64,000 nt of DNA from Patescibacteria group bacterium (GTDB lineage: Bacteria > Patescibacteriota > UBA1384 > UBA12157 > JAENIV01): assembly GCA_041666185.1 (NCBI GenBank), contig JBAYHL010000001.1, positions 2,421 to 66,420 of the forward strand, read 5' to 3'. Below, in pieces: positions 6,780 through 59,197 of the stretch. The translations under genes and the position numbers were made by a program. Each line of letters opens with the position of its first letter. Positions within the stretch are counted from its first letter, which is position 1. A model generated the notes under the pieces. It saw only the letters and a list, made by a program, of their open reading frames with translations. It ran no database searches and was not told the DNA's origin.

Positions 6780-6837
6780 TATGAGTATTTTATACCTAAA
6801 TTACCTGAGAATCAACTGAGAATGGGTACAAAAAAAA

Positions 6838-7185
6838 CCTTAAGCAATCGATAAGCCAGGTTTTGTTTTGACAGCATCTATCTAAGCGTCGGAACTCCTT
6901 GGACGTCAGGTCGAGTAAACCTTTGATGATGAATGGAGCCCATCCGACTTGCACTATGCAGGGTTTGCCCCGCGCTATGTCGCCATAGGCACGCGTGCGC
7001 TCTTACCGCACGATTTCAACCTTACCCTTCGACTCCACGCTTGCGCGTTTCGCTCAGGGCGGTATGTTTCTGTTGCACTTTCCCTAGGGTCACCCCCGGT
7101 CGTATTTAAACGACTACAACACTCTATAGTGCCTGGACTTTCCTCCCCGATTTAACATCGGGGTAACTGCCTCGATTACTTAAGG
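6838..7185 (-). ncRNA. rnpB: RNase P RNA (bacterial type A)
   Basis: On the minus strand: P4 GGAGGAAAGUCCAGGCAC; AAGUGCAACAGAAACAUACCGCC; GGUAAGGUUGAAAUCGUGCGGUAAGAGCGCAC; 3' ACAAAACCUGGCUUAUCGAUUGC. These align with the E. coli M1 RNA conserved blocks, and a P1 helix forms between the ends. Local GC is elevated. Confidence 0.9.
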
Positions 7186-28767: not shown

Positions 28768-29919
28768 TTGCGTATTGGCATTTTTACTGAATGTTATCAC
28801 CCGATTTTAAATGGCGTGGTTGTTTCTATTGATACTTTTAAAAGTGAACTAGAAAAGCGTGGCCATAAGTTTTTTATTTTCGCGCCTTCAAATAGTAAGT
28901 GCGAGGATAACCCTATTAATGTCTTTCGGTACCCAGCGCTTCCTTGGCCAAAAGACTATCCTTTAGCTTTCCCCTATCTAGCACCTTTACAACAAGCTCG
29001 AATTCAAGATTTAAGGCTAGATATTGTTCATACCCAACATATGTTTACTATGGGAAGATTAGGGTTAAGACTCTCTCGAAAATTAAATATTCCTATTGTT
29101 CACACTTACCACACTTTGATTTCCGAATATGTTCACTATGTTCCTCTTGTGCCCAAAAGCTTAACAAAGGCAGCTATCATCCATCTTACAAGGAATTACT
29201 GCAATAACTGCGATCAGATTGTTACTCCTTCACCTTCAATGCAAAAGATATTACGTTCTTATGGTGTCAAAAAACCAATTGAGGCCATTCCAACAGGAGT
29301 TTATTTAGAGAACCTTGCTGACCCTTACCATAAAGAGGTTTTGAAAACTAAATGGCAAATTCCAGAAAATAAAAAAATCCTTCTTTATGTTAGTCGAGTT
29401 GCTAAGGAAAAAAACCTTGATTTTCTTTTTCGAGTAATCAAAAAGTTGTCCGCAAAAAGGCAAGATTTCCACTTGTTAGTAGTAGGCGGTGGACCAGAAC
29501 TTGAACACTATCAAAACTTAGTTAAGACTCAGGAATTGTCTTCTTATGTTACCTTCACTGGTATGCAAGAAAAAAAGAAAGCTAATCGATTTTTTGGCGC
29601 TGCAGATATTTTTGTTTTTCCTTCTATTACGGAAACACAGGGAATTGTCATCACTGAAGCAATGGCCGCTGGCATTCCTGCTGTTGCAATAAATAAAATG
29701 GGACCATCTGATATTATTAAAGACGGTGTTGATGGTTTCCTCACACCATTGAATGTTGAAACCTTTTCTGCTAGAATAGAATCTCTTTTAGAAAACAGTG
29801 ATTTAAGAAAAACTTTCAGTCGCAACGCTAAAGAAAATGCGGAGAAATTTTCTGCCAAAGCATGCGCTGACAAAATGGAAAAACTTTATGAAAAAACAAT
29901 TAGTTACCATTCCGAATAA
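28768..29919 (+). CDS. GT4-family glycosyltransferase (TTG start)
   Basis: EX7E-type motif (ETQGIVITEAMAAGIPAVA), GGAGGGGAGGG SD. Confidence 0.8.
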   Translation: MRIGIFTECYHPILNGVVVSIDTFKSELEKRGHKFFIFAPSNSKCEDNPINVFRYPALPWPKDYPLAFPYLAPLQQARIQDLRLDIVHTQHMFTMGRLGLRLSRKLNIPIVHTYHTLISEYVHYVPLVPKSLTKAAIIHLTRNYCNNCDQIVTPSPSMQKILRSYGVKKPIEAIPTGVYLENLADPYHKEVLKTKWQIPENKKILLYVSRVAKEKNLDFLFRVIKKLSAKRQDFHLLVVGGGPELEHYQNLVKTQELSSYVTFTGMQEKKKANRFFGAADIFVFPSITETQGIVITEAMAAGIPAVAINKMGPSDIIKDGVDGFLTPLNVETFSARIESLLENSDLRKTFSRNAKENAEKFSAKACADKMEKLYEKTISYHSE

Positions 29920-31231
29920 GATACTTTCCGAGGTGACACAAAAAGTCACCTCTTTTGATAATAAAATTAAGACCCAAGTAGAATCAATGCGCTCTCTTTT
30001 AAAAACTCAGGACGGCGCAGGATTAGCTGCTAACCAAATTGGCGACAATAATCGCGTAATTGTTGTTGAGCTAGAAGACGAGAAAATAAAAAATTCTATT
30101 CCCTTCCAAGCCTTTATTAATCCGGAAATAGTTGAATGCTCCGAAGATAAAGACGATCTCGAAGAAGGATGTCTTTCTGTTCCTCAAATAGAACTACCGG
30201 TTGAAAGATCAACAAAAATTAAGATTCGTTTTCAAGATTTAGAAGGAAAAAAGAATAAATTAACTGCCAAAGATATTTTTGCTCGCATTCTTCAACACGA
30301 AATTGACCATTTAAATGGAATTATTTTTACCGAAAGGGTTAAAGAAAAATTTCTTGCAACGAATCCCAATTTAAAAAATATAAAAATTGCCTTTTTTGGC
30401 TCTGGTAACTTTGCCGCGACAATTTTAGAGGGGTTAATTTTATTAGGTCTTAAATTAGAAATTTTTACCGAAAGCGCTAAACCTTCCGGTCGTCATAAAG
30501 AAACAAAAACAACTCCAGTAGCGCAAATGGCGCAACGTTTTAGCAAAAAAGTAATTGAAGTTGACAATTTTTCAAATATTAAATCTAAAATTTCAGATCT
30601 CGATCTCTTGATTTGTACAGATTTCGGTCAAAAAATTCCCGTTGATATCTTAAAATTAGCAAAAATTACTGCCATTAACGTCCATCCTTCACTTTTACCA
30701 AAATATCGTGGACCAACACCAATTCAAACAGCAATTTTAGATGGTGCGAAAGAAACTGGCGTATCAATTATTAAAATGAGTGAAAAAATCGACGAAGGTG
30801 ATATTTTAGCTCAAATTAAAACTGATATATCCGAAGATGACAATAGCCTAACTTTGTCCAATATGTTGGCCACTCTTTCTTTAAAACTAATTTTTGAAGC
30901 TCTACCCTTAATCGTTAATGACCAACTTCAAAAATTAGAACAAAATGAAAAAAAAGCAACTTTAACCAAAAAGTTTCAAAAAGCTGACGGAGAAATTGAT
31001 TGGAATAAACAACCTGATCAAATTGAAAGACAAATTAGAGCTTTTTACCCTTGGCCAGGTTCTTATACATTCATAGGTGATCAAAGACTTATAATTCATA
31101 AGGCTCACATAACAGATGGCAAATTAGCCCTTGATATTGTTCAAGCAGAAGGCAAAAAACCTACAAAATGGTCTGATTTTCTACTCGGATTTCGCGGAGA
31201 AACACCTCAGTGGTTTGATAAAGTAAAATAA
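29888..31231 (+). CDS. def-fmt: fused peptide deformylase / methionyl-tRNA formyltransferase (Def-Fmt)
   Basis: Def motifs GAGLAANQIG, EGCLSVP, HEIDHLNG followed in-frame by Fmt motifs (IAFFGSGNFA, HPSLLPKYRGPTPIQ) in one 447-aa ORF. Confidence 0.8.
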   Translation: MKKQLVTIPNKILSEVTQKVTSFDNKIKTQVESMRSLLKTQDGAGLAANQIGDNNRVIVVELEDEKIKNSIPFQAFINPEIVECSEDKDDLEEGCLSVPQIELPVERSTKIKIRFQDLEGKKNKLTAKDIFARILQHEIDHLNGIIFTERVKEKFLATNPNLKNIKIAFFGSGNFAATILEGLILLGLKLEIFTESAKPSGRHKETKTTPVAQMAQRFSKKVIEVDNFSNIKSKISDLDLLICTDFGQKIPVDILKLAKITAINVHPSLLPKYRGPTPIQTAILDGAKETGVSIIKMSEKIDEGDILAQIKTDISEDDNSLTLSNMLATLSLKLIFEALPLIVNDQLQKLEQNEKKATLTKKFQKADGEIDWNKQPDQIERQIRAFYPWPGSYTFIGDQRLIIHKAHITDGKLALDIVQAEGKKPTKWSDFLLGFRGETPQWFDKVK

Positions 31232-31311
31232 TATATAATAGTAGTAGTTAAATCAGAATTATTATAATTTTGATTTGTTATTTTAATTTTTGATCTATTG
31301 TGAGGAGGGGT

Positions 31312-34300
31312 ATGAACTTTATTTTTTGGAAAAAATCAAAGAGGACTAAAAAAGAAAAACCTGCCGCTGATCTATTATTACCAAAAGACAAGAAGGAAAT
31401 TGAAAAGCTTGCAGAAATGAAGTCGAAACACCTTGAAAGCGTCGAGGAGCTTAATCGTAAAATTACTACCATAGAAAGCTCTACCGAGACACTTGTGCCT
31501 AAATTTGGTCGTCTTCATCATTTACTTAGAGAAAAAATTGGTTGGTATCGTAATTGGCACACAAAACCATATACTCACAGTGTTCACTGGTTGGTTTTAT
31601 TACTTTATATTATCTCTCTTCCTATCGCCTATTTTTATCTTTCACCCTACGCATCAAGAACCAAAGCCATTACTTACGATTTTCCGAGATGGGAGCAAGT
31701 AAATCCAACCCCAACAGGCAATGACTTATTGAAGACCGCAGCTTGCTCTCAAGACGGTTCTGCTTGGACAGTTGGCGATGTTGGGACAATTTTTAGATCT
31801 TCTGCCACAGAAGACAATTGGGTCCGCCAATATACTAATACAGACAAGGATTTAAAAGATATTATTTGCATAGATCCAAGCAATATAATTGCAGTAGGTG
31901 CTTATGGCGATATTGTTCAATATAACGGTATTACTTGGACAACTAAAGCAAGTGGCACAACTAGTAATCTTTTTAATTTAGTTGCTCTTGATTCTACACA
32001 TATTATTGCAATTGGAAACTCTGGCGCTATAACTGTTTCCACTGATGCTGGTCAAACTTGGGAAGTTAAAACAAGTAGCACAACTGACAATCTTAGAAAT
32101 GCGGTTGCGTTTGATGCTACTCACACTCTTGCATTAGGAGTCTCTGGCCGTATTTTAATTTCTAATGATGCTGGTCAAACTTGGGAAGTTAAAACAAGTA
32201 GCACATCTGAAAATTTAAGAGGCGCAGCTATTCTTGATTCTACTCATGCAATTGCCGTAGGCGATAATGGAGCCATAACTGTTTCCACTGATATTGGTCA
32301 AACGTGGACGGCTAAAACAAGTGGAGATGGCAATCATTTTAACAGTGTGGTTGCTCTTGATTCCACTCATGCAATTGCCGTAAATTTTTTTGGAGGAATA
32401 GCTACCTCTTCTGATGCTGGACAGACATGGACACTTAAGACAAGTGGAACTGGCGATCATTTAATGAGTGTAACCGCCCTTGATTCTACCCATGCAATTA
32501 CGGTTGGTGATCATGGGACTGTATCTATCTCTTCTGATGCTGGACAGACATGGACACTTAAGACAAGTGGAACAACTAGTCTTCTAAGAAACGTAGCTAC
32601 TATTAGCTCCACTCGCGCGATTGCAGTAGGTGACTTTGGAGGCACGACTGTTTCTTCTAATGCTGGCCAAACATGGGTAACTAAGACAAGTGGCACAGTT
32701 GAAGAATTTTATGATGTTATCACCCTTGATTCCACTCATGCAATTGCGGTCGGAGTTGGTGGTTCTATTTTTCTCTCTTCTGATGCTGGTCAAACATGGA
32801 CAGCTAAAACAAGTGGAGTTTCAGCTCACCTTACTAGTGTAACTACTTTTGATTCTACTCATTTGGTTGCCGTAGGTTTTCCTGGAGGTTCCAAGACTAT
32901 TACTGTCTCTTCTGATGCTGGTCAAACATGGACAGCTAAAGAAACTGGGACTACCATTCTTGACGATGTAGCTGCTCTTAGTTCCGTTCGTGCTATCGCT
33001 GTTGGAATGACTAACGATGGACGTAGTGGCGCTGTCATGACTACCGCTGATGCTGGACAAACATGGACGACTAGGACAAGCGGAGCAACACAAACTCTTA
33101 AAGAGGTAGTTGCTCTTGATTCCACTCATGCAATTGCTGTTGGTAATTCTGGAACTATAATCGTCTCCACTAATGCAGGACAAACGTGGACAACTAAGGC
33201 AAGTGGAACAACACTGACTCTTCAGAAAGTAGTTGCTCTTGATTCCACTCATGCAATTGTGATCGGATCAAGTGGAACTATTATTGTCTCTTCTGATGCT
33301 GGTCAAACGTGGACAACTAAGGCAAGTGATACAACTAATCATTTAAATGGTATAACTGTTCTTGATTCCACTCATGCAATTGCAGCTGGAGCAAATGGAA
33401 CCATAACTGTCTCAGCTGATGCTGGTCAAACGTGGACGACTAAGGCAAGTGATACAACTAATCATTTGTTTGACATAAACTCTTTTAACGGTAACTACGT
33501 AATTGCGGTAGGTGATCTAGGGGGAATAACTGTCTCTTCTGATGCTGGTCAGACATGGACAAGCAAAGGAAGCGGAACAATCAATTTATTGCGTACTGCA
33601 TCCATTTTTGATGCCACCCATTCTACAGCAGTAGGTGATTTTGGTACCATTCTTCGTTATTATTCTCCTGCTAATGCGACTGCGACCAAACTTTTAATTA
33701 AGCTTCCCGGGCAATCTTTTGCTGATGGAGTAGGAGTAAGTGGTACACCTAACGCAGTTCAAGCAGGAGACCAAGTCACAGCAACTATTTACGCCGTTGA
33801 TGCTAACAATAATTTAGACAAAGGCAACGCTTCTTATGCTAGTTTTACTACCACTGATCCAAATGATAGTAACCCAGCCACTATTCAGCTTACTCAAGAC
33901 GGTACTTGTGTTCAAACCAATCGCCAACCAGGTGATCCAGAATGTGGCATTGGCACGGCTACTTTCCAATTTCATACAGCTGGCACTTGGACTATTAACA
34001 CTAATGACGCTTATGGTGTTCTTTCTTCTATAACATCATCAAGCGTTACCATCAACCCAGGAGACCCAGCAAAATTAGTTGTTTCAGGACTGCCTTCATC
34101 CCTTAATGCCGGGGCAGTTTCGGGAGCAGTAACCGTTAAAATTACCGATACATACGGTAACGAAACAACAACTGGTTCTAGCACAACCATCAACCTTTCA
34201 ACTACCAGTTCAAATGGAAAATTTGCTCAAAGTTCAAGTGGACCTTGGTCAGAAGAATCAAAAAATATTACCATTTCTGCTGGCAGCAGTTCAGCAACTT

Positions 34301-36162
34301 TTTACTATTATGATTTAAATGTTGGTACGCCAACTATTACAGCTTCAGAAACACCTTCTGCTGGTTGGGAAGACGATAGCGATATTTTAACTATTAATAC
34401 TGGAGCAATTTCCCAATCATCTTTAACGGTTGATAAAAATTCACTTGCTGCTGGCGAAAGTTTAACCGCCACCGTTACTTTAAAAAACAACGAGGGCACA
34501 GTATTACCAAGCAAATCAGTCCAATTATTTTCTTCTCGCAATACCAGCGAAACAACGACTGATAGCATTTCCCCTTCCAGCGCAACTACCGATTCAAACG
34601 GTGTCGCAAGTTTTACCGTTAGCTCAACCTCTATTGGTGACTTTATTCTTTCTGCCTATGACCAATCTGACAATCTCTATGTTGCTCAAGAACAAGGTGT
34701 CAGTGTAAGTATTGGAAATTTAGGAAAAATTGTTGTTGAAAGTAGTGCTTCAGAAGTACAACCAGGTTCACCTTTTGAAGTTACCGCAACCACGTACGAT
34801 AGCTACAACAATGTTAAAACAGATTTTACCGGCACACTTGAGTTTTCTTCATCCGACAGTTCAGTTAAATTTGTTGAAGCAAGCCACGCCCTTACTTCTA
34901 GTGAAAAAGGTAAATATACCCAATCTATTATTTTACAAGGAGAGGGTGAACAAAGCGTTCAAGTTACTGCTGACGGTATTTCCGGTATAGCCTATGTCAC
35001 TGTCACACCATCAGCAACACCAGCCGCTATTACTTCCCCAACGCCATCAGCAACCACTTCAACAATAATTACCACTCCATCGCCAACGGAGACTACCGCA
35101 AAACCTTTATCAGCCATAGAAGCCTTACAAGAATCACCAACATTACAAAAAATCGCTCAAGCCTTAACACCTGTTACTGCTACTGTTGCCACCCTAGGAA
35201 TCGTTCCTTTGTTGGTTCAAGCTTTTCCTCAAGGCTTTCAAGCATTAGCTTCACTATTTCCAGCAATTTTCACGGCTGCCGCCGTTAGACGCCGTCGCAA
35301 ACCATGGGGCATTGTCTACGACTCCATAACCGGCAAACCAGTTGACTTAGCAGTTGTAAGAGTCTTTAACGAGTCAAACGATAAATTAGTTGCCACTAAA
35401 GTTACTGATCAAAACGGTCGTTTTAACTTTTTACTTGCCAGAGGCAAATATTACGTCACTGTTACAAAAGCCGGTTATATTTTCCCACCAAAAATTTCTA
35501 AACTTAAAGCCTACCAACTTTCAACCAGATTTGGTCCACAAAGTGATATCTATTTTGGTCAACCATTTGTTATTGGTGCTGACGATACTAATGTCAACTT
35601 GAATATTGGCCTTGATCACAAAACACGCAACCTTTCCTTAGCTAACAAAACCATAATCTGGGTAAAAAATGGTCTTGATTGGTTCTTGATCGGACTCTCT
35701 TACTTTGCGGTTCCATTAATGATATTGGGAGCGATTTTTGCCAGTCTTGCTGTTGTGGTTGCACCTTCCACTTTCCACCTAGTCCTATCAGGATTCTACG
35801 TTTTACTACTTATTGCTTATCTTATCGGTAGTCGAATCCAAGCTGCTCGCATTGGAACTGTTTTTGATTCAATTTCTAAAAAACCAATTGCTAAAGCAAC
35901 TGTTTCGATTTTTGATAAAGAGTACAACGCTATTAGAGAAATTAAAACTACTGATCAAAATGGTCGTTTCGCCATTTTAGCCCAACGTGGACAATATTAT
36001 TTAACCGTTCAAGCTAAAGGTTATAAATTCCCATCTAAAGAATTTTCTTACCAAAAGAAGGATAAGAAATTAGGTCATATCTATCTTGGCGAAACTATCA
36101 ATAATAAAAAACCTGGTTTTGTTAGTGTTCATATTCCATTGGACAAAGAGGAAAAGAAATAA
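31312..36162 (+). CDS. giant surface protein (1616 aa): N-terminal TM anchor, about 18 Asp-box/BNR beta-propeller repeats, Ig-like domains, Thr/Pro linker, TM segments and two CarboxypepD_reg-like domains
   Basis: Repeated S-x-D-x-G-x-T-W (SSDAGQTWT) every ~44 aa; GAGGAGGGG SD before the ATG at 31312; hydrophobic helices near residues 95-115 and 1240-1275/1440-1480; two VxDxxTGKPxxxAxV...TDxNGRF modules. Confidence 0.8.
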   Translation: MNFIFWKKSKRTKKEKPAADLLLPKDKKEIEKLAEMKSKHLESVEELNRKITTIESSTETLVPKFGRLHHLLREKIGWYRNWHTKPYTHSVHWLVLLLYIISLPIAYFYLSPYASRTKAITYDFPRWEQVNPTPTGNDLLKTAACSQDGSAWTVGDVGTIFRSSATEDNWVRQYTNTDKDLKDIICIDPSNIIAVGAYGDIVQYNGITWTTKASGTTSNLFNLVALDSTHIIAIGNSGAITVSTDAGQTWEVKTSSTTDNLRNAVAFDATHTLALGVSGRILISNDAGQTWEVKTSSTSENLRGAAILDSTHAIAVGDNGAITVSTDIGQTWTAKTSGDGNHFNSVVALDSTHAIAVNFFGGIATSSDAGQTWTLKTSGTGDHLMSVTALDSTHAITVGDHGTVSISSDAGQTWTLKTSGTTSLLRNVATISSTRAIAVGDFGGTTVSSNAGQTWVTKTSGTVEEFYDVITLDSTHAIAVGVGGSIFLSSDAGQTWTAKTSGVSAHLTSVTTFDSTHLVAVGFPGGSKTITVSSDAGQTWTAKETGTTILDDVAALSSVRAIAVGMTNDGRSGAVMTTADAGQTWTTRTSGATQTLKEVVALDSTHAIAVGNSGTIIVSTNAGQTWTTKASGTTLTLQKVVALDSTHAIVIGSSGTIIVSSDAGQTWTTKASDTTNHLNGITVLDSTHAIAAGANGTITVSADAGQTWTTKASDTTNHLFDINSFNGNYVIAVGDLGGITVSSDAGQTWTSKGSGTINLLRTASIFDATHSTAVGDFGTILRYYSPANATATKLLIKLPGQSFADGVGVSGTPNAVQAGDQVTATIYAVDANNNLDKGNASYASFTTTDPNDSNPATIQLTQDGTCVQTNRQPGDPECGIGTATFQFHTAGTWTINTNDAYGVLSSITSSSVTINPGDPAKLVVSGLPSSLNAGAVSGAVTVKITDTYGNETTTGSSTTINLSTTSSNGKFAQSSSGPWSEESKNITISAGSSSATFYYYDLNVGTPTITASETPSAGWEDDSDILTINTGAISQSSLTVDKNSLAAGESLTATVTLKNNEGTVLPSKSVQLFSSRNTSETTTDSISPSSATTDSNGVASFTVSSTSIGDFILSAYDQSDNLYVAQEQGVSVSIGNLGKIVVESSASEVQPGSPFEVTATTYDSYNNVKTDFTGTLEFSSSDSSVKFVEASHALTSSEKGKYTQSIILQGEGEQSVQVTADGISGIAYVTVTPSATPAAITSPTPSATTSTIITTPSPTETTAKPLSAIEALQESPTLQKIAQALTPVTATVATLGIVPLLVQAFPQGFQALASLFPAIFTAAAVRRRRKPWGIVYDSITGKPVDLAVVRVFNESNDKLVATKVTDQNGRFNFLLARGKYYVTVTKAGYIFPPKISKLKAYQLSTRFGPQSDIYFGQPFVIGADDTNVNLNIGLDHKTRNLSLANKTIIWVKNGLDWFLIGLSYFAVPLMILGAIFASLAVVVAPSTFHLVLSGFYVLLLIAYLIGSRIQAARIGTVFDSISKKPIAKATVSIFDKEYNAIREIKTTDQNGRFAILAQRGQYYLTVQAKGYKFPSKEFSYQKKDKKLGHIYLGETINNKKPGFVSVHIPLDKEEKK
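31900..33620 (+). repeat. intragenic tandem DNA repeats (~132-bp unit, more than 12 copies, high identity) encoding the BNR blades
   Basis: Recurring ...tctgatgctggtcaaac(a/g)tggac... blocks at a 132-bp period. Confidence 0.8.
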
Positions 36163-36178
36163 GAATACTAAAAACAAA

Positions 36179-36218
36179 AATACCCCTGCAAACGAAACTC
36201 TGCAGGGGTATTTTTTTA
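36179..36218. terminator. bidirectional rho-independent terminator
   Basis: TACCCCTGCA-loop-TGCAGGGGTA flanked by an A-run and a T-run; lies between convergent genes. Confidence 0.75.
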
Positions 36219-49778: not shown

Positions 49779-50093
49779 TGGTGGAGCTGGGGGAAATTGC
49801 ATCCCCGTCCAAAAAAAGATCTAACAATCATTGACAAGTGTAAATTTTGCCTTTGTTTTCTTAATTTTACCTACTAAGACAACCTTGGTAAAAAGCAAGT
49901 TGATTTGTCATGCCCGATTCCAACCATTCAACTAACAATTGGGCGGACAGCGTTTAGCCTCGCGTTATGCTAAGGCTAGCGCAGGTGTATAAGCTGATTT
50001 GTTGCTTATTTTTTGCGACAAAATCTACGAGCTTATGTCGCCAGCTCGACTTGAAATTGTTTTTCTCTTTTCCTGTCGAATCTATACAGCCCC
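49779..50093 (-). ncRNA. ssrA: tmRNA (transfer-messenger RNA)
   Basis: Minus-strand 5' GGGGCUGUAUAGAUUCGACAGG and 3' GGACGGGGAUGCAAUUUCCCCCAGCUCCACCA match the tRNA-like domain. The acceptor is identical to E. coli (G3-U70). An internal frame ends ...GCU UAU ACA CCU GCG CUA GCC UUA GCA UAA (tag ending PALALA). Confidence 0.85.
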
Positions 50094-57544: not shown

Positions 57545-59197
57545 TTATCTCATATAGATTTTATCACATTTGTAAGATATAATAAAAAGGATTTCGGGGT
57601 GTAGCGCAGCCCGGTAGCGCGCATCGTTCGGGACGATGAGGTCGGAAGTTCGAATCTTCTCACCCCGACCAAGAGTGACAGTTTCAGGTTTTATATTCAA
57701 AATGCTCTTATAGCACGGATTAATTTCGGTGTTCAAATACCCGGGATAGTTCCAGACCAATCCTGATGGGAATATTGAACACAAGAGCATTCTCTTCTGT
57801 TGTAAGTCTGAATTTTGATAAGTATTCGCCAAGTTTTTGAACTTTTCGCGAATAAAAACTGTCACATCTTCAATATTATACTTTGTGATTAAATCGTCAT
57901 CTTTCGCTATTTGGATTGTGGCGATTTTTTGTTCCAAAATCCTATTTTGTTCTTTGAATATGTCATCGGAATAAATACCAGCCAGATTTTTCTCAATTAA
58001 GGCCTGGCGGGTTTCATAGAGCTTTTTAAGCTCATCATCAGCCTGTTCTCGCCTTTTTTGTAGTGTTGCGACCCTGTGATAATAAGTTTTTCGCAGATAA
58101 GTTCCTGTTAACTCCAGAGCTTTATCAGTCATACTAACACTATCAAGAAGATTTGTTGTTGCTTCTTCTAATTCATCCATAGGCACAGAATGGCCTTTGC
58201 CACACCATTTTTGACAAAAGTAATAAGCATACCTCTGCATTTTTCCTTTGCTCCAGCCAGCCGTCAGAGATGACCCGCAACCGCTGCATTTAACAATTCG
58301 GCGTAGCGGAAAATCTTCGTTATCACGATTTTTCTTAGCGAATGGTTTGGCAATATTAACATTTCGTCCATCTAAAATGGCCTGTATACGATAGAATTGT
58401 TCTTCGGTCACCATTGGCGTATGCTGCCCCTGGACTTCTTGCTTATATTTTTTGGACACCAATTTTCCTGTATAGAACTTATTGCGGAACATTCGCTGGA
58501 TTGTTTGCGCCTTAACCTTGAATTCTCTACCCGTTCGATACTTAACTTTTATACCCTTCTCATCCATGATCTTTGCCATCTCTCGTAGTGATTTGGTTCC
58601 CGTCGCCATAAGCTCCCATGCTTCTTTTAATTTATCGAAAGCCTTGGGGTCTTTGGTCACATAGCCGTTTTCATTTAAATAGCCCAACGGGGCCAAACTC
58701 GAAGGAAGCCCCGAAAGGAACCGAGCTCGCAATCCATTCTTGGCTCGTTCTCCTCGCACATCATTATCCATCTGGGCAAAACCAGCCAGCATCGTTTCAA
58801 CAAACTTTTCAGTCGGACTATTGCCTGTTGGCTCCGAAGCTGAAATCAAACTAATCTCACTCTCGGCCAACTTTTTGCGAATTACCAAATAGTCAGCAGT
58901 TTGACGGGAAATACGATCTAGTCGATAGACTATGACCGCCCCGACTTCTTTCTTGTGTTTTCGGCAATATTCAAGCATTTGTAAAAGTACCGGACGACCA
59001 GAAATAGTTTTTGCCGATCGGCCTTCTTCGCGGAAAATCTGGTCGACCGTTAGCTTTCTTCTAGTGGCCTCTTTTGTGCAGATATCTTCCTGCGTTGCGA
59101 GAGAATAATTTTCAATTTGCTCTTCGCTAGAAACGCGAATATACATTACCGCATGTTCGGTTTTGTTCGGTTTTTGGCTAAAAAAAGATTGGTTCAT
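57545..59197 (-). CDS. large serine recombinase (resolvase catalytic domain + recombinase domain + zinc ribbon/coiled-coil)
   Basis: [12 protein letters not shown] catalytic Ser motif, RLDRISR, Cys-rich CSGCGS...CQKWC; the ORF reads antisense through tRNA-Pro before its stop. Confidence 0.85.
57595..57671 (+). tRNA. tRNA-Pro (anticodon CGG), CCA encoded
   Basis: CGGGGUG acceptor, anticodon stem CAUCG/CGAUG with loop UUCGGGA, T-loop GUUCGAAUC. Confidence 0.8.

Follow-up and report, generated by a model that had tools for sequence, protein, structure and literature searches.

A stalked surface protein with a predicted Asp-box propeller head in a Patescibacteria group bacterium, and the candidate leader-and-cassette chassis that it shares with other Patescibacteria

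By 2009, Asp-box beta-propellers of 5, 6, 7 and 10 blades were on record, and most of the characterised examples are glycosidases; the Asp-box itself is structural and function resides in the variable loops of the top face (PMC2716378). The closest described systems include Ycf48, a single 7-bladed lipoprotein of photosystem II assembly, the GH74 xyloglucanases, which carry two consecutive Asp-box propellers per chain, and the fibrillar adhesins of monoderm bacteria, which use an LPXTG motif and in many cases a signal peptide of the YSIRK type. Those Patescibacteria that have been cultivated are found attached to other microbes (PMC10633639, PMC11665869), and the molecules by which Patescibacteria make contact are poorly known beyond type IV pili, the type IV secretion system and a few adhesins from transposon sequencing (Tn-seq). 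The present analysis concerns a gene at positions 31312-36162 (+ strand) of a 64,000-nucleotide stretch of DNA from a Patescibacteria group bacterium (GenBank assembly GCA_041666185.1, contig JBAYHL010000001.1, positions 2,421 to 66,420), hereafter referred to as the window. It encodes a genuine cell-surface protein of a Patescibacteria-type bacterium, 1616 aa in length and, as stated in a preliminary description of this DNA, the largest in the window, the next open reading frame (ORF) being of 933 aa. We lean, on sequence-based grounds, towards reading the product as an adhesin or receptor that a monoderm Patescibacteria-type cell would carry, a stalked protein that binds without catalysis and has an exchangeable head on a conserved chassis, and the role of candidate adhesin or partner-interaction protein proposed earlier stays the best functional guess. 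A big BNR-repeat surface protein is ordinary on its own; the added value of this locus lies in an undescribed leader-plus-cassette chassis, which possibly places folded domains in the cytoplasm.

To judge from sequence comparison, the N-terminal leader (aa 1-119) and the C-terminal cassette (aa 1284-1616) constitute a family of their own, undescribed and shared across Patescibacteria. No description of the leader or the cassette was found in the literature, Pfam and NCBIfam hold no model for the leader or for the helical part of the cassette, and a Tn-seq paper (Cell 2023) mentions adhesins and no propeller, transthyretin or carboxypeptidase domain. A search of 1.84 billion representatives with a cassette profile, which matches the window protein over positions 1-332 at E = 1e-142, retrieved 27,962 proteins at E <= 1e-3 and 3,167 at E <= 1e-30, counts that include some multi-repeat CarboxypepD_reg proteins which are not cassette proteins. 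Among the proteins gathered, 119 sequence-cluster representatives cover at least 250 of the 333 profile positions in one stretch; a word-indexed search with the C-terminal module alone returned nine matches. Cassette proteins range from under 300 to 3175 aa in length, and the cassette stands at the C-terminus in all 34 members examined. The passengers in these 34 include Big_1 (21 members), PSII_BNR (9), Invasin_D3 (9) and Kelch (3), and, of the clusters, one bears the name of an FN3 protein and another was given a plastocyanin label by its source. The taxon-named members are all Patescibacteria (Saccharibacteria, Parcubacteria, Uhrbacteria, Harrisonbacteria, Berkelbacteria, CPR3 and Paceibacterota), and one metagenome-assembled genome among the members carries a Gammaproteobacteria label.

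Full-length orthologues of the window protein were found only in Patescibacteria metagenome bins, namely P0001 (50% identity, 100% coverage), P0002 (44%), P0004 (43%), P0003 and P0005. Conservation among the four nearest relatives falls from the C-terminal module (71-74% identity) through the stalk (54-62%) to the head (26-35%), and the leader is 56-64% identical except in genome L004, where a part of it has been lost. In two of these relatives, P0003 and L005, nearly all the Asp-boxes have disappeared. Rapid change in the head, with the chassis conserved, is the pattern to be expected where a surface part encounters ligands, hosts or phages. The two ends of the chassis also travel together: all 36 complete leader-bearing proteins have the cassette as well, and the six leader-bearing proteins among 120 picked by propeller similarity alone consist of five with the cassette and P0006, a C-terminally truncated fragment. 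Weighing against this association are its dependence mainly on proteins gathered with the cassette profile, and an independent search with the leader alignment, which recovered ten short fragments only.

The cassette is made up, in order, of a helix H1, a 4-residue loop, a helix H2, the basic cluster RRRRK with the conserved PWGxVYDS, a first sandwich domain (D1), a helical hairpin (H3-H4) and a second sandwich domain (D2). The anchor helices H1 (aa 1284-1305) and H2 (aa 1306-1325) together with the cluster RRRRK (aa 1326-1330) occupy 35161-35301 (+) and were recognised by hydropathy and, at low confidence, by AlphaFold2 (AF2). D1 (aa 1331-1439, 35302-35628, +), which starts with PWGxVYDS, matched CarbopepD_reg_2 and bMG3 of Pfam and was assigned with AF2 and Foldseek. 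The membrane hairpin H3-H4 (aa 1452-1510, 35665-35841, +), with a 4-residue connecting loop, is indicated by hydropathy, AF2 and the flanking Lys and Arg residues. D2 (aa 1515-1616, 35854-36159, +), of which 16.7% is Lys, matched CarbopepD_reg_2 over aa 1515-1592 and is further assigned by AF2 and composition. The hydrophobic segments of the whole protein lie at aa 91-110, 1284-1325 and 1454-1510. CarbopepD_reg_2 (PF13715) scored 48.0 bits against a cut-off of 32.2, in two stretches. An AF2 model of aa 1270-1616 reached a predicted local distance difference test score (pLDDT) of 73.2; the sandwiches are mostly at about 70-89, with a loop of D1 dipping to 56-69, while the helices at 174-214 and 218-243 of the modelled segment, which correspond to H3-H4, are at 63-80 and H1-H2 at 45-55. 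Foldseek matched the sandwiches to the transthyretin-like domain of carboxypeptidase D, with target-normalised TM-scores (TMt) of 0.73-0.74, and also to SdrD B and CnaB domains. C-terminal membrane helices with two transthyretin-like domains had been anticipated in the preliminary description; Pfam, AF2 and Foldseek agree with this, and the structure prediction places membrane helices between the two sandwiches.

D1 and D2 are rather likely to lie on the cytoplasmic side of the membrane. Over 128 members, the mean number of Lys and Arg residues is 4.55 in the six residues past H2 (RRRRKP in the window protein, aa 1326-1331), 2.83 before H3 and 2.36 after H4, against 0.01 and 0.30 in the two 4-residue loops, a distribution which under the positive-inside rule argues for cytoplasmic sandwiches and for H1 and H2 making one crossing together. 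The composition of the sandwiches points the same way, since it resembles that of housekeeping proteins. Charged residues make up 21% of D1 and 30% of D2, and Ser, Thr, Asn, Gly and Ala 32% and 28%, respectively; the housekeeping proteins of the window have mostly 22-30% charged residues and 24-29% of the five small or polar residues, with one of eight sampled ORFs outside both ranges. The propellers and the stalk of the same chain, in contrast, have 13% and 53%, respectively, and the same contrast with the sandwiches is seen family-wide. Further support comes from the variant P0123, in which a single 25-residue hydrophobic segment precedes KRRRKPWG.

Several observations weigh against the cytoplasmic placement. 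In characterised proteins, transthyretin-like and CarboxypepD_reg domains almost invariably lie outside the cytoplasm. The cassette moreover resembles a duplication of a unit of two helices, a 4-residue Pro loop, a basic patch and a G-x-V-x-D sandwich, and a hairpin made by H1-H2, in the manner of H3-H4, would put the sandwiches on the outside. In the window protein H2 matches H1 in hydrophobicity, its hydrophobic moment of 0.25, compared with 0.11-0.22 in the other helices, is not distinctive, and the AF2 confidence for H1 and H2 is low, as given above. They lead to an alternative in which the same stalked protein would have both sandwiches outside, two hairpins in the membrane and nothing in the cytoplasm, the cassette acting as an anchor to the wall whose sandwiches, with their basic patches, would attach to wall polymers or the S-layer. 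The apparent internal duplication fits this arrangement in its dimensions (H1 and H3 of about 24 aa, H2 and H4 of 16-19 aa, both loops of 4 residues), AF2 renders H1 and H2 as two separate helices, and the closest solved folds are the wall or pilus domains SdrD B, CnaB and SpaA. However, it would leave about ten net positive charges outside and none inside across the 128 members, in breach of the positive-inside rule, would place domains of cytoplasm-like composition next to an ectodomain of a different kind in the same chain, and is difficult to reconcile with P0123 and its one membrane segment before the basic cluster. We therefore regard the outside arrangement as plausible but on the whole doubtful.

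Two further observations were made on the cassette. Most of the distant members (for example P0154, P0160 and P0166) have a conserved His...Tyr...Glu-Ala-Leu-Gly-Ile in H2 just before RKRRRxWG, where the window subfamily has FQALASLFPAIFTAAAV; conserved polar residues in so short an H2 suggest helix-helix contacts or an interfacial position. The possibility of a sortase substrate was also considered and rejected, as no [LIV]Px[TSA]G (LPXTG) motif was found in the protein and the RRRRK cluster with its hydrophobic segment lies 290 residues before the C-terminus.

The leader consists of a Lys/Glu-rich n-region predicted to be cytoplasmic (aa 1-90, 31312-31581, +; 36.7% Lys, Arg, Glu and Asp), delimited by composition and an alignment of 18 members, followed at 31582-31668 (+) by a 20-residue hydrophobic core (aa 91-110) and a Pro-containing polar c-region, SPYASRTKA, that ends with T117-K118-A119. 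The motif IxxxxSTxTLxPxFxxLHxxLRxKxxWYxxWHxxPYxxxxHW spans aa 51-93 and thus ends, at 31590, within the part assigned to the hydrophobic core. S57, T58, T60, H69, R73, Y79, W82 and H92 are invariant in the alignment of 18 members, and the motif is conserved among members with different heads. A profile of the leader matches the window protein over positions 1-135 at E = 4e-65, a value that is partly so by construction, the window sequence being among the profile seeds. A Pfam scan of aa 1-123 at E <= 10 listed no leader family, neither YSIRK nor ESPR, and the likeness of the leader to these two would be an analogy in logic, with no kinship in sequence. We take the leader to be a long signal sequence that bears a motif, is cleavable and is reserved for the cassette proteins.

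Signal peptidase I cleavage follows the -3/-1 rule. A triplet [TSIVL]-[KQ]-A occurs 24-30 residues past the conserved HW in all 17 aligned members and in most of the others, also before unrelated heads, and the rule is therefore satisfied in all the aligned members. Hydropathy and this triplet point to probable cleavage at T117-K118-A119, with the mature protein starting at I120. The N-terminal membrane anchor of the preliminary description has accordingly been replaced by another interpretation, the segment more probably serving as the hydrophobic core of a signal sequence that is long, conserved and cleavable. It counts against cleavage that a core of 20 aa and a leader of 119 aa are both long for a signal peptide, and the segment could be an uncleaved signal anchor. 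In that event the ectodomain of 1170 aa would form a loop tied to the membrane at both ends with the propellers about 10 residues from it, and the protein, no distal adhesin, would act as a Ycf48-like membrane-proximal scaffold or chaperone, or as a strap of the surface lattice. A core of 20 aa could indeed span the membrane, the strict linkage of leader and cassette would suit two ends that pack together within it, and Ycf48 is itself a propeller at a membrane surface. Yet we consider both the double attachment and the roles that would go with it unlikely, in view of the conserved triplet past a Pro-containing c-region in members with unrelated heads, of the many cassette proteins with ordinary cleavable signal peptides, of the L004 orthologue, which has lost about 70 aa of the n-region and kept the rest, and of an Ig stalk and Thr/Pro linker that would be hard to explain with the head held down at the membrane.

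More than one kind of export signal occurs before the cassette. The short cassette proteins have ordinary cleavable signal peptides in place of the leader, and the cassette alone therefore suffices for retention. A 571-aa protein found with the cassette profile, P0220, has a type IV prepilin-like leader, KKTRRAFTLVELLVV, before the same C-terminal cassette; the N-terminal export signals that occur with the cassette are thus of at least three kinds. In the syntenic orthologue of L004 (2404-7035 of that sequence), the residues lost from the n-region include the invariant motif, and the hydrophobic core, a head of 665 aa, the stalk and the cassette are all kept.

The head (aa 120-786, 31669-33669, +) comprises 16 blades of about 41 aa arranged in predicted tandem Asp-box beta-propellers, an assignment based on the blade alignment with three orthologues, AF2, Foldseek and Pfam. 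In the scan of the whole protein, PSII_BNR (PF14870) scored 103.9 bits against a cut-off of 27 (1e-29, five stretches) and BNR had E = 1.5e-15; Sortilin-Vps10, Big_1 and CarbopepD_reg_2 (twice) were matched as well. An AF2 model of aa 115-800, with the orthologue alignment as input, is all-beta with a pLDDT of 75.6. Foldseek searches of the PDB with this model returned GH74 xyloglucanases (E = 1e-10), other tandem propellers and Ycf48 (TMt 0.64-0.68), with probability 1.00. Ycf48 proteins are also the only PDB sequence matches to the head, and the NCBIfam model of the Ycf48 equivalog, NF010237, scored 102.7 bits, short of its cut-off of 326. Tandem closed Asp-box beta-propellers can be proposed from these models with moderate confidence. 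The presence of SxDxGxTW propellers, recognised at the outset from the letters alone, is upheld by 13 motifs, the PSII_BNR match and the structure prediction of the propeller segment with its GH74 and Ycf48 neighbours. Of the three comparisons suggested at that stage, the one with Ycf48 held, its type being the best sequence family, and those with sortilin and sialidase did not. The best Vps10 stretch covers positions 2-67 of a 446-position profile and the whole protein has four Cys residues, so that a Vps10 assignment was rejected; a sialidase (GH33) assignment was likewise rejected, as no FRIP/RIP motif was found anywhere in the 1616 aa.

Most probably the head serves for binding and has no catalytic role, because its blades are minimal (41 aa) and homogenised, the sialidase motif is missing, and the family closest in sequence, the Ycf48 type, is non-enzymatic, in keeping with an Asp-box that is structural and a top face that carries the function (PMC2716378). 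Should the head instead be a glycoside hydrolase, GH74-like or sialidase-like, it would degrade glycans of a host or of the environment. Such an enzyme would agree with the top Foldseek matches, which are GH74 enzymes with tandem Asp-box propellers, and with the prevalence of glycosidases among the characterised Asp-box propellers (PMC2716378). However, the likeness to GH74 is at the level of the fold only, with 12-16% identity, a global TM-score of 0.24-0.31 and 16 blades rather than 14; in blades 3-15 a single 41-aa unit is repeated in homogenised form, with no catalytic insertions, and the syntenic orthologues have Asp-box-poor versions of the head. Together with the lack of the FRIP/RIP motif and the affinity to the non-enzymatic Ycf48 type, these features make a hydrolase very improbable indeed.

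The organisation of the blades differs in several respects from that first described. The motif [ST]x[DN]xGQTW occurs 13 times between aa 243 and 742, where we estimate a chance expectation of about 0.002 for a protein of this length, and ten of the 12 spacings are of 41 aa, the other two being of 44 and 45 aa. Tandem Repeats Finder gave a period of 123 bp with 70-80% matches, and a repeat search showed the 123-nt spacing throughout the array. The period is thus 123 bp (41 aa) and not 132 bp (44 aa), and the blades number 16 rather than about 18: two degenerate N-terminal blades, 13 canonical blades with the Asp-box (blades 3-15, aa 215-754, 31954-33573, +) and one closing blade without it, as obtained from a blade-by-blade alignment with P0001, P0002 and P0004. 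Nor are the units nearly identical at the DNA level, as had been thought. Ungapped 123-bp units share a mean DNA identity of 60% (maximum 80%, minimum 41%) and a mean protein identity of 48%, and the longest exact word shared between units is 40 nt. Units so diverged speak against a recent expansion in the window gene, and a repeat assembly artefact is therefore unlikely.

The comparison with the orthologues separates the number of the blades from their sequences. The window protein, P0001, P0002 and P0004 can be aligned blade for blade over all 16 positions, and the span of the head from TYDFPRWE to RY[HY]SPA is 661 aa in the window protein, 656 in P0001, 654 in P0002, 654 in P0004 and 665 in L004. 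Blades 1, 2 and 16 show positional orthology between orthologues, whereas blades 3-15 show none, identity at the same position being equal to identity at different positions, and 12 of the 13 window blades in this range are closest to a sister blade of the same protein. The array is therefore taken to be homogenised now and then by concerted evolution, with the count fixed at 16. Within-protein blade identity is 0.53 in the window protein, 0.27 in P0001 and 0.67 (maximum 0.98) in P0002, and the last homogenisation in the window gene is old. The gene of P0002 (L003, 7927-9403) shows a 369-bp super-period of three blades in 3.9 copies with 80% matches, and its blades of up to 98% protein identity indicate a recent homogenisation in that lineage. 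Repeat homogenisation thus holds for the family, and the near-identity claimed for the window gene does not.

The same data bear on the suggestion that the gene is a contingency locus, in which a recently expanded array would vary in copy number or phase between cells, or else be an artefact of assembly. A tandem 123-bp array with shared exact words of up to 40 nt, the concerted evolution of blades 3-15 and the near-identical blades of P0002 are what such a locus might present. Set against them are the 60% mean identity of the units, which makes collapse or expansion in assembly unlikely, and the conservation of the count: lability is argued against because 16 blades are kept across a deep divergence, in aligned orthologues of 43-50% identity and with a head span of 654-665 aa in five proteins, and because a closed propeller constrains the number. 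Moreover, no simple-sequence repeats were found in 31200-36162 (gene and leader), and the only homopolymer tract in these 4.9 kb is a single T7, which is under the average for the window. We consider a contingency locus very unlikely, and the copy-number variability and phase variation raised in the preliminary description find no support in the four aligned proteins, the five head spans or the repeat content. When metagenomes were scanned for propeller copies from the same species, mostly relatives of 22-31% identity and one short fragment of 44% came up.

Between head and cassette lies a stalk of about four Ig-like domains of 105-120 aa, of Big_1/invasin type (aa 787-1229, 33670-34998, +). 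One of these is matched by Big_1 (PF02369), at aa 1035-1115, with a borderline 35.5 bits against a cut-off of 34.9 in a scan of the sub-sequence and 32.8 bits, under the cut-off, in that of the whole protein. The other three are inferred from a recurring signature, (A/P)Gxxx(T/V)xT...D..(G/N)N, every ~110 aa, the internal similarity being weak (z up to 4.7). The stalk is followed by a Thr/Pro/Ser/Ala-rich linker (aa 1230-1283, 34999-35160, +), recognised from its sequence and composition (53.7% Ser, Thr, Asn, Gly and Ala; 9.3% charged) and presumed to be a wall-spanning spacer. The Big_1 match and the linker bear out the Ig-like domains and the Thr/Pro stretch noted earlier.

These elements can be combined into a possible way of working for a stalked binding protein. 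The 119-aa leader would target the protein to Sec export, its conserved cytoplasmic motif acting like those of motif-bearing extended signal peptides such as YSIRK and ESPR, and would be cut after T117-K118-A119. The head of 16 blades, a tandem Asp-box propeller by fold prediction, would then be the free N-terminal tip of the mature protein, kept away from the cell by about four Big_1 Ig-like domains and the Thr/Pro linker. Retention would be due to the polytopic C-terminal cassette, with one crossing (H1, with H2 juxtamembrane), the RRRRK stop-transfer, D1, the hairpin and D2, the two sandwiches most likely on the cytoplasmic side. The head would evolve fast, with its blades repeatedly homogenised at a count of 16, on a chassis that would be conserved and inherited vertically at a housekeeping locus. 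It weighs against the scheme that we infer ligand binding, localisation and cleavage alike from the sequence. An episymbiotic setting is plausible from the taxonomy. A further step, which we put forward tentatively as a possibility rather than an expectation, is that the leader (S-T-x-T...H...R...Y...W...H) and the cassette could form a Patescibacteria-specific export and anchoring system, in which cytoplasmic sandwiches would couple the exchangeable head to the cell interior. If so, it would be a sortase-independent counterpart of YSIRK plus LPXTG, and its members, instead of passive adhesins, would be adhesion receptors that span the membrane and follow an integrin-like logic.

The start of the gene and its surroundings are consistent with an ordinary chromosomal location. 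A GTG at 31300 offers an alternative start; the ATG at 31312 was taken because a Shine-Dalgarno-like AGGAGG (31303-31308, +), read directly from the sequence, lies 3 nt upstream and because the N-termini of the orthologues (MDFSFFK, MDLNIFWK) align there. The upstream genes are of a housekeeping kind (radical SAM, LigB/Memo, AMMECR1, PriA, a GT4 glycosyltransferase and a def-fmt fusion), and downstream are a convergent iPGM gene, then TrmD, L25 and a MiaB-like gene. The order GT4, def-fmt, surface-protein gene, iPGM is common to the GTDB genomes L004 and L005, with iPGM also kept in L003, and the locus is therefore a stable chromosomal one and no island. The GC content is raised to 0.40-0.43 across 32000-36000 of the window, as against about 0.34 in the flanks; horizontal acquisition, which this had suggested, was rejected, the locus being syntenic in L004 and L005 and the Ser/Thr/Ala/Gly-rich ectodomain accounting for the GC. 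No operon partner such as a sortase was found in the neighbourhood of the gene. Comparison of 27 cassette-encoding loci revealed no family-wide partner gene either, the sole shared neighbours being iPGM, def-fmt and GT4, in the closest orthologues only.

Some other features of the window may be recorded. A hairpin with a 17-bp stem and flanking A- and T-runs, detected in a promoter/terminator scan (36176-36215, no strand assigned), lies between the convergent stop codons of the surface-protein gene and iPGM and looks like a bidirectional terminator. The def-fmt fusion (29837-31231, +) is a single 464-aa ORF that joins peptide deformylase to methionyl-tRNA formyltransferase (Pep_deformylase, Formyl_trans_N/C); as mechanically listed it overlaps the upstream GT4 ORF (28768-29919) by 83 nt, and L004 and L005 have the same fusion in the same position. 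A tRNA-Pro(cgg) at 57595-57671 (+) falls inside a mechanically listed ORF of 550 aa (57545-59197, -), the true start of which is probably further in. A bacterial RNase P class A RNA (6837-7182, -), a tmRNA (49779-50093, -) and five tRNAs make up ordinary chromosomal content.

The wider interest of the chassis lies in its use as a guide to the surface of these organisms. The family is large, with varied heads (Asp-box or Kelch propellers, FN3 and others) on the same leader, stalk and anchor. The chassis thus gives a sequence handle by which the surface-exposed repertoire of any Patescibacteria genome can be listed, and yields a short list of fast-evolving heads as candidate determinants of host recognition. 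Cytoplasmic sandwiches, if that is where they lie, would also make the chassis a candidate pathway by which signals or force could pass through the membrane of cells in which very few sensory systems are known.

Comparison with the known systems places the window protein near several of them. The best sequence family is the Ycf48/HCF136 type (PF14870), which includes 'YCF48-related' extracellular proteins of non-photosynthetic bacteria, and the two have in common regular blades of ~41-44 aa, each with an Asp-box, and a non-enzymatic character. The single propeller of Ycf48, however, compares with 16 tandem blades, an Ig stalk and a polytopic anchor here, and in place of a photosystem II setting the 64 kb of the window organism show only housekeeping genes. 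The GH74 xyloglucanases, the top structural matches, likewise have two consecutive Asp-box propellers per chain, but with 14 irregular blades and a catalytic cleft, whereas the window protein has 16 near-uniform blades and no catalytic signature was found in it. The likeness to intimin and invasin rests on the stalk, of which one domain reaches the Big_1 threshold, and on the relatives, with Big_1 in 21 and Invasin_D3 in 9 of 34; those proteins are inverse autotransporters of the outer membrane with a C-terminal lectin-like tip, unlike the N-terminal head and helical cytoplasmic-membrane anchor proposed here. Sortilin/Vps10 and the integrin alpha chain offer an analogy of propeller head, Ig-like legs, one membrane helix and a cytoplasmic tail; Sortilin-Vps10 of Pfam matches the Asp-box blades, yet the 10CC Cys-rich module is absent and the resemblance is one of analogy only. 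The fibrillar adhesins of monoderm bacteria follow the same logic throughout, with a motif-bearing extended signal, a distal head, a Big_1-type stalk, a Thr/Pro spacer and a hydrophobic segment with a basic cluster. They differ from the window protein in their use of LPXTG, which it lacks, as its neighbourhood lacks a sortase, and in what follows the basic cluster, where the window protein continues for 290 residues with two sandwiches and a helical hairpin.

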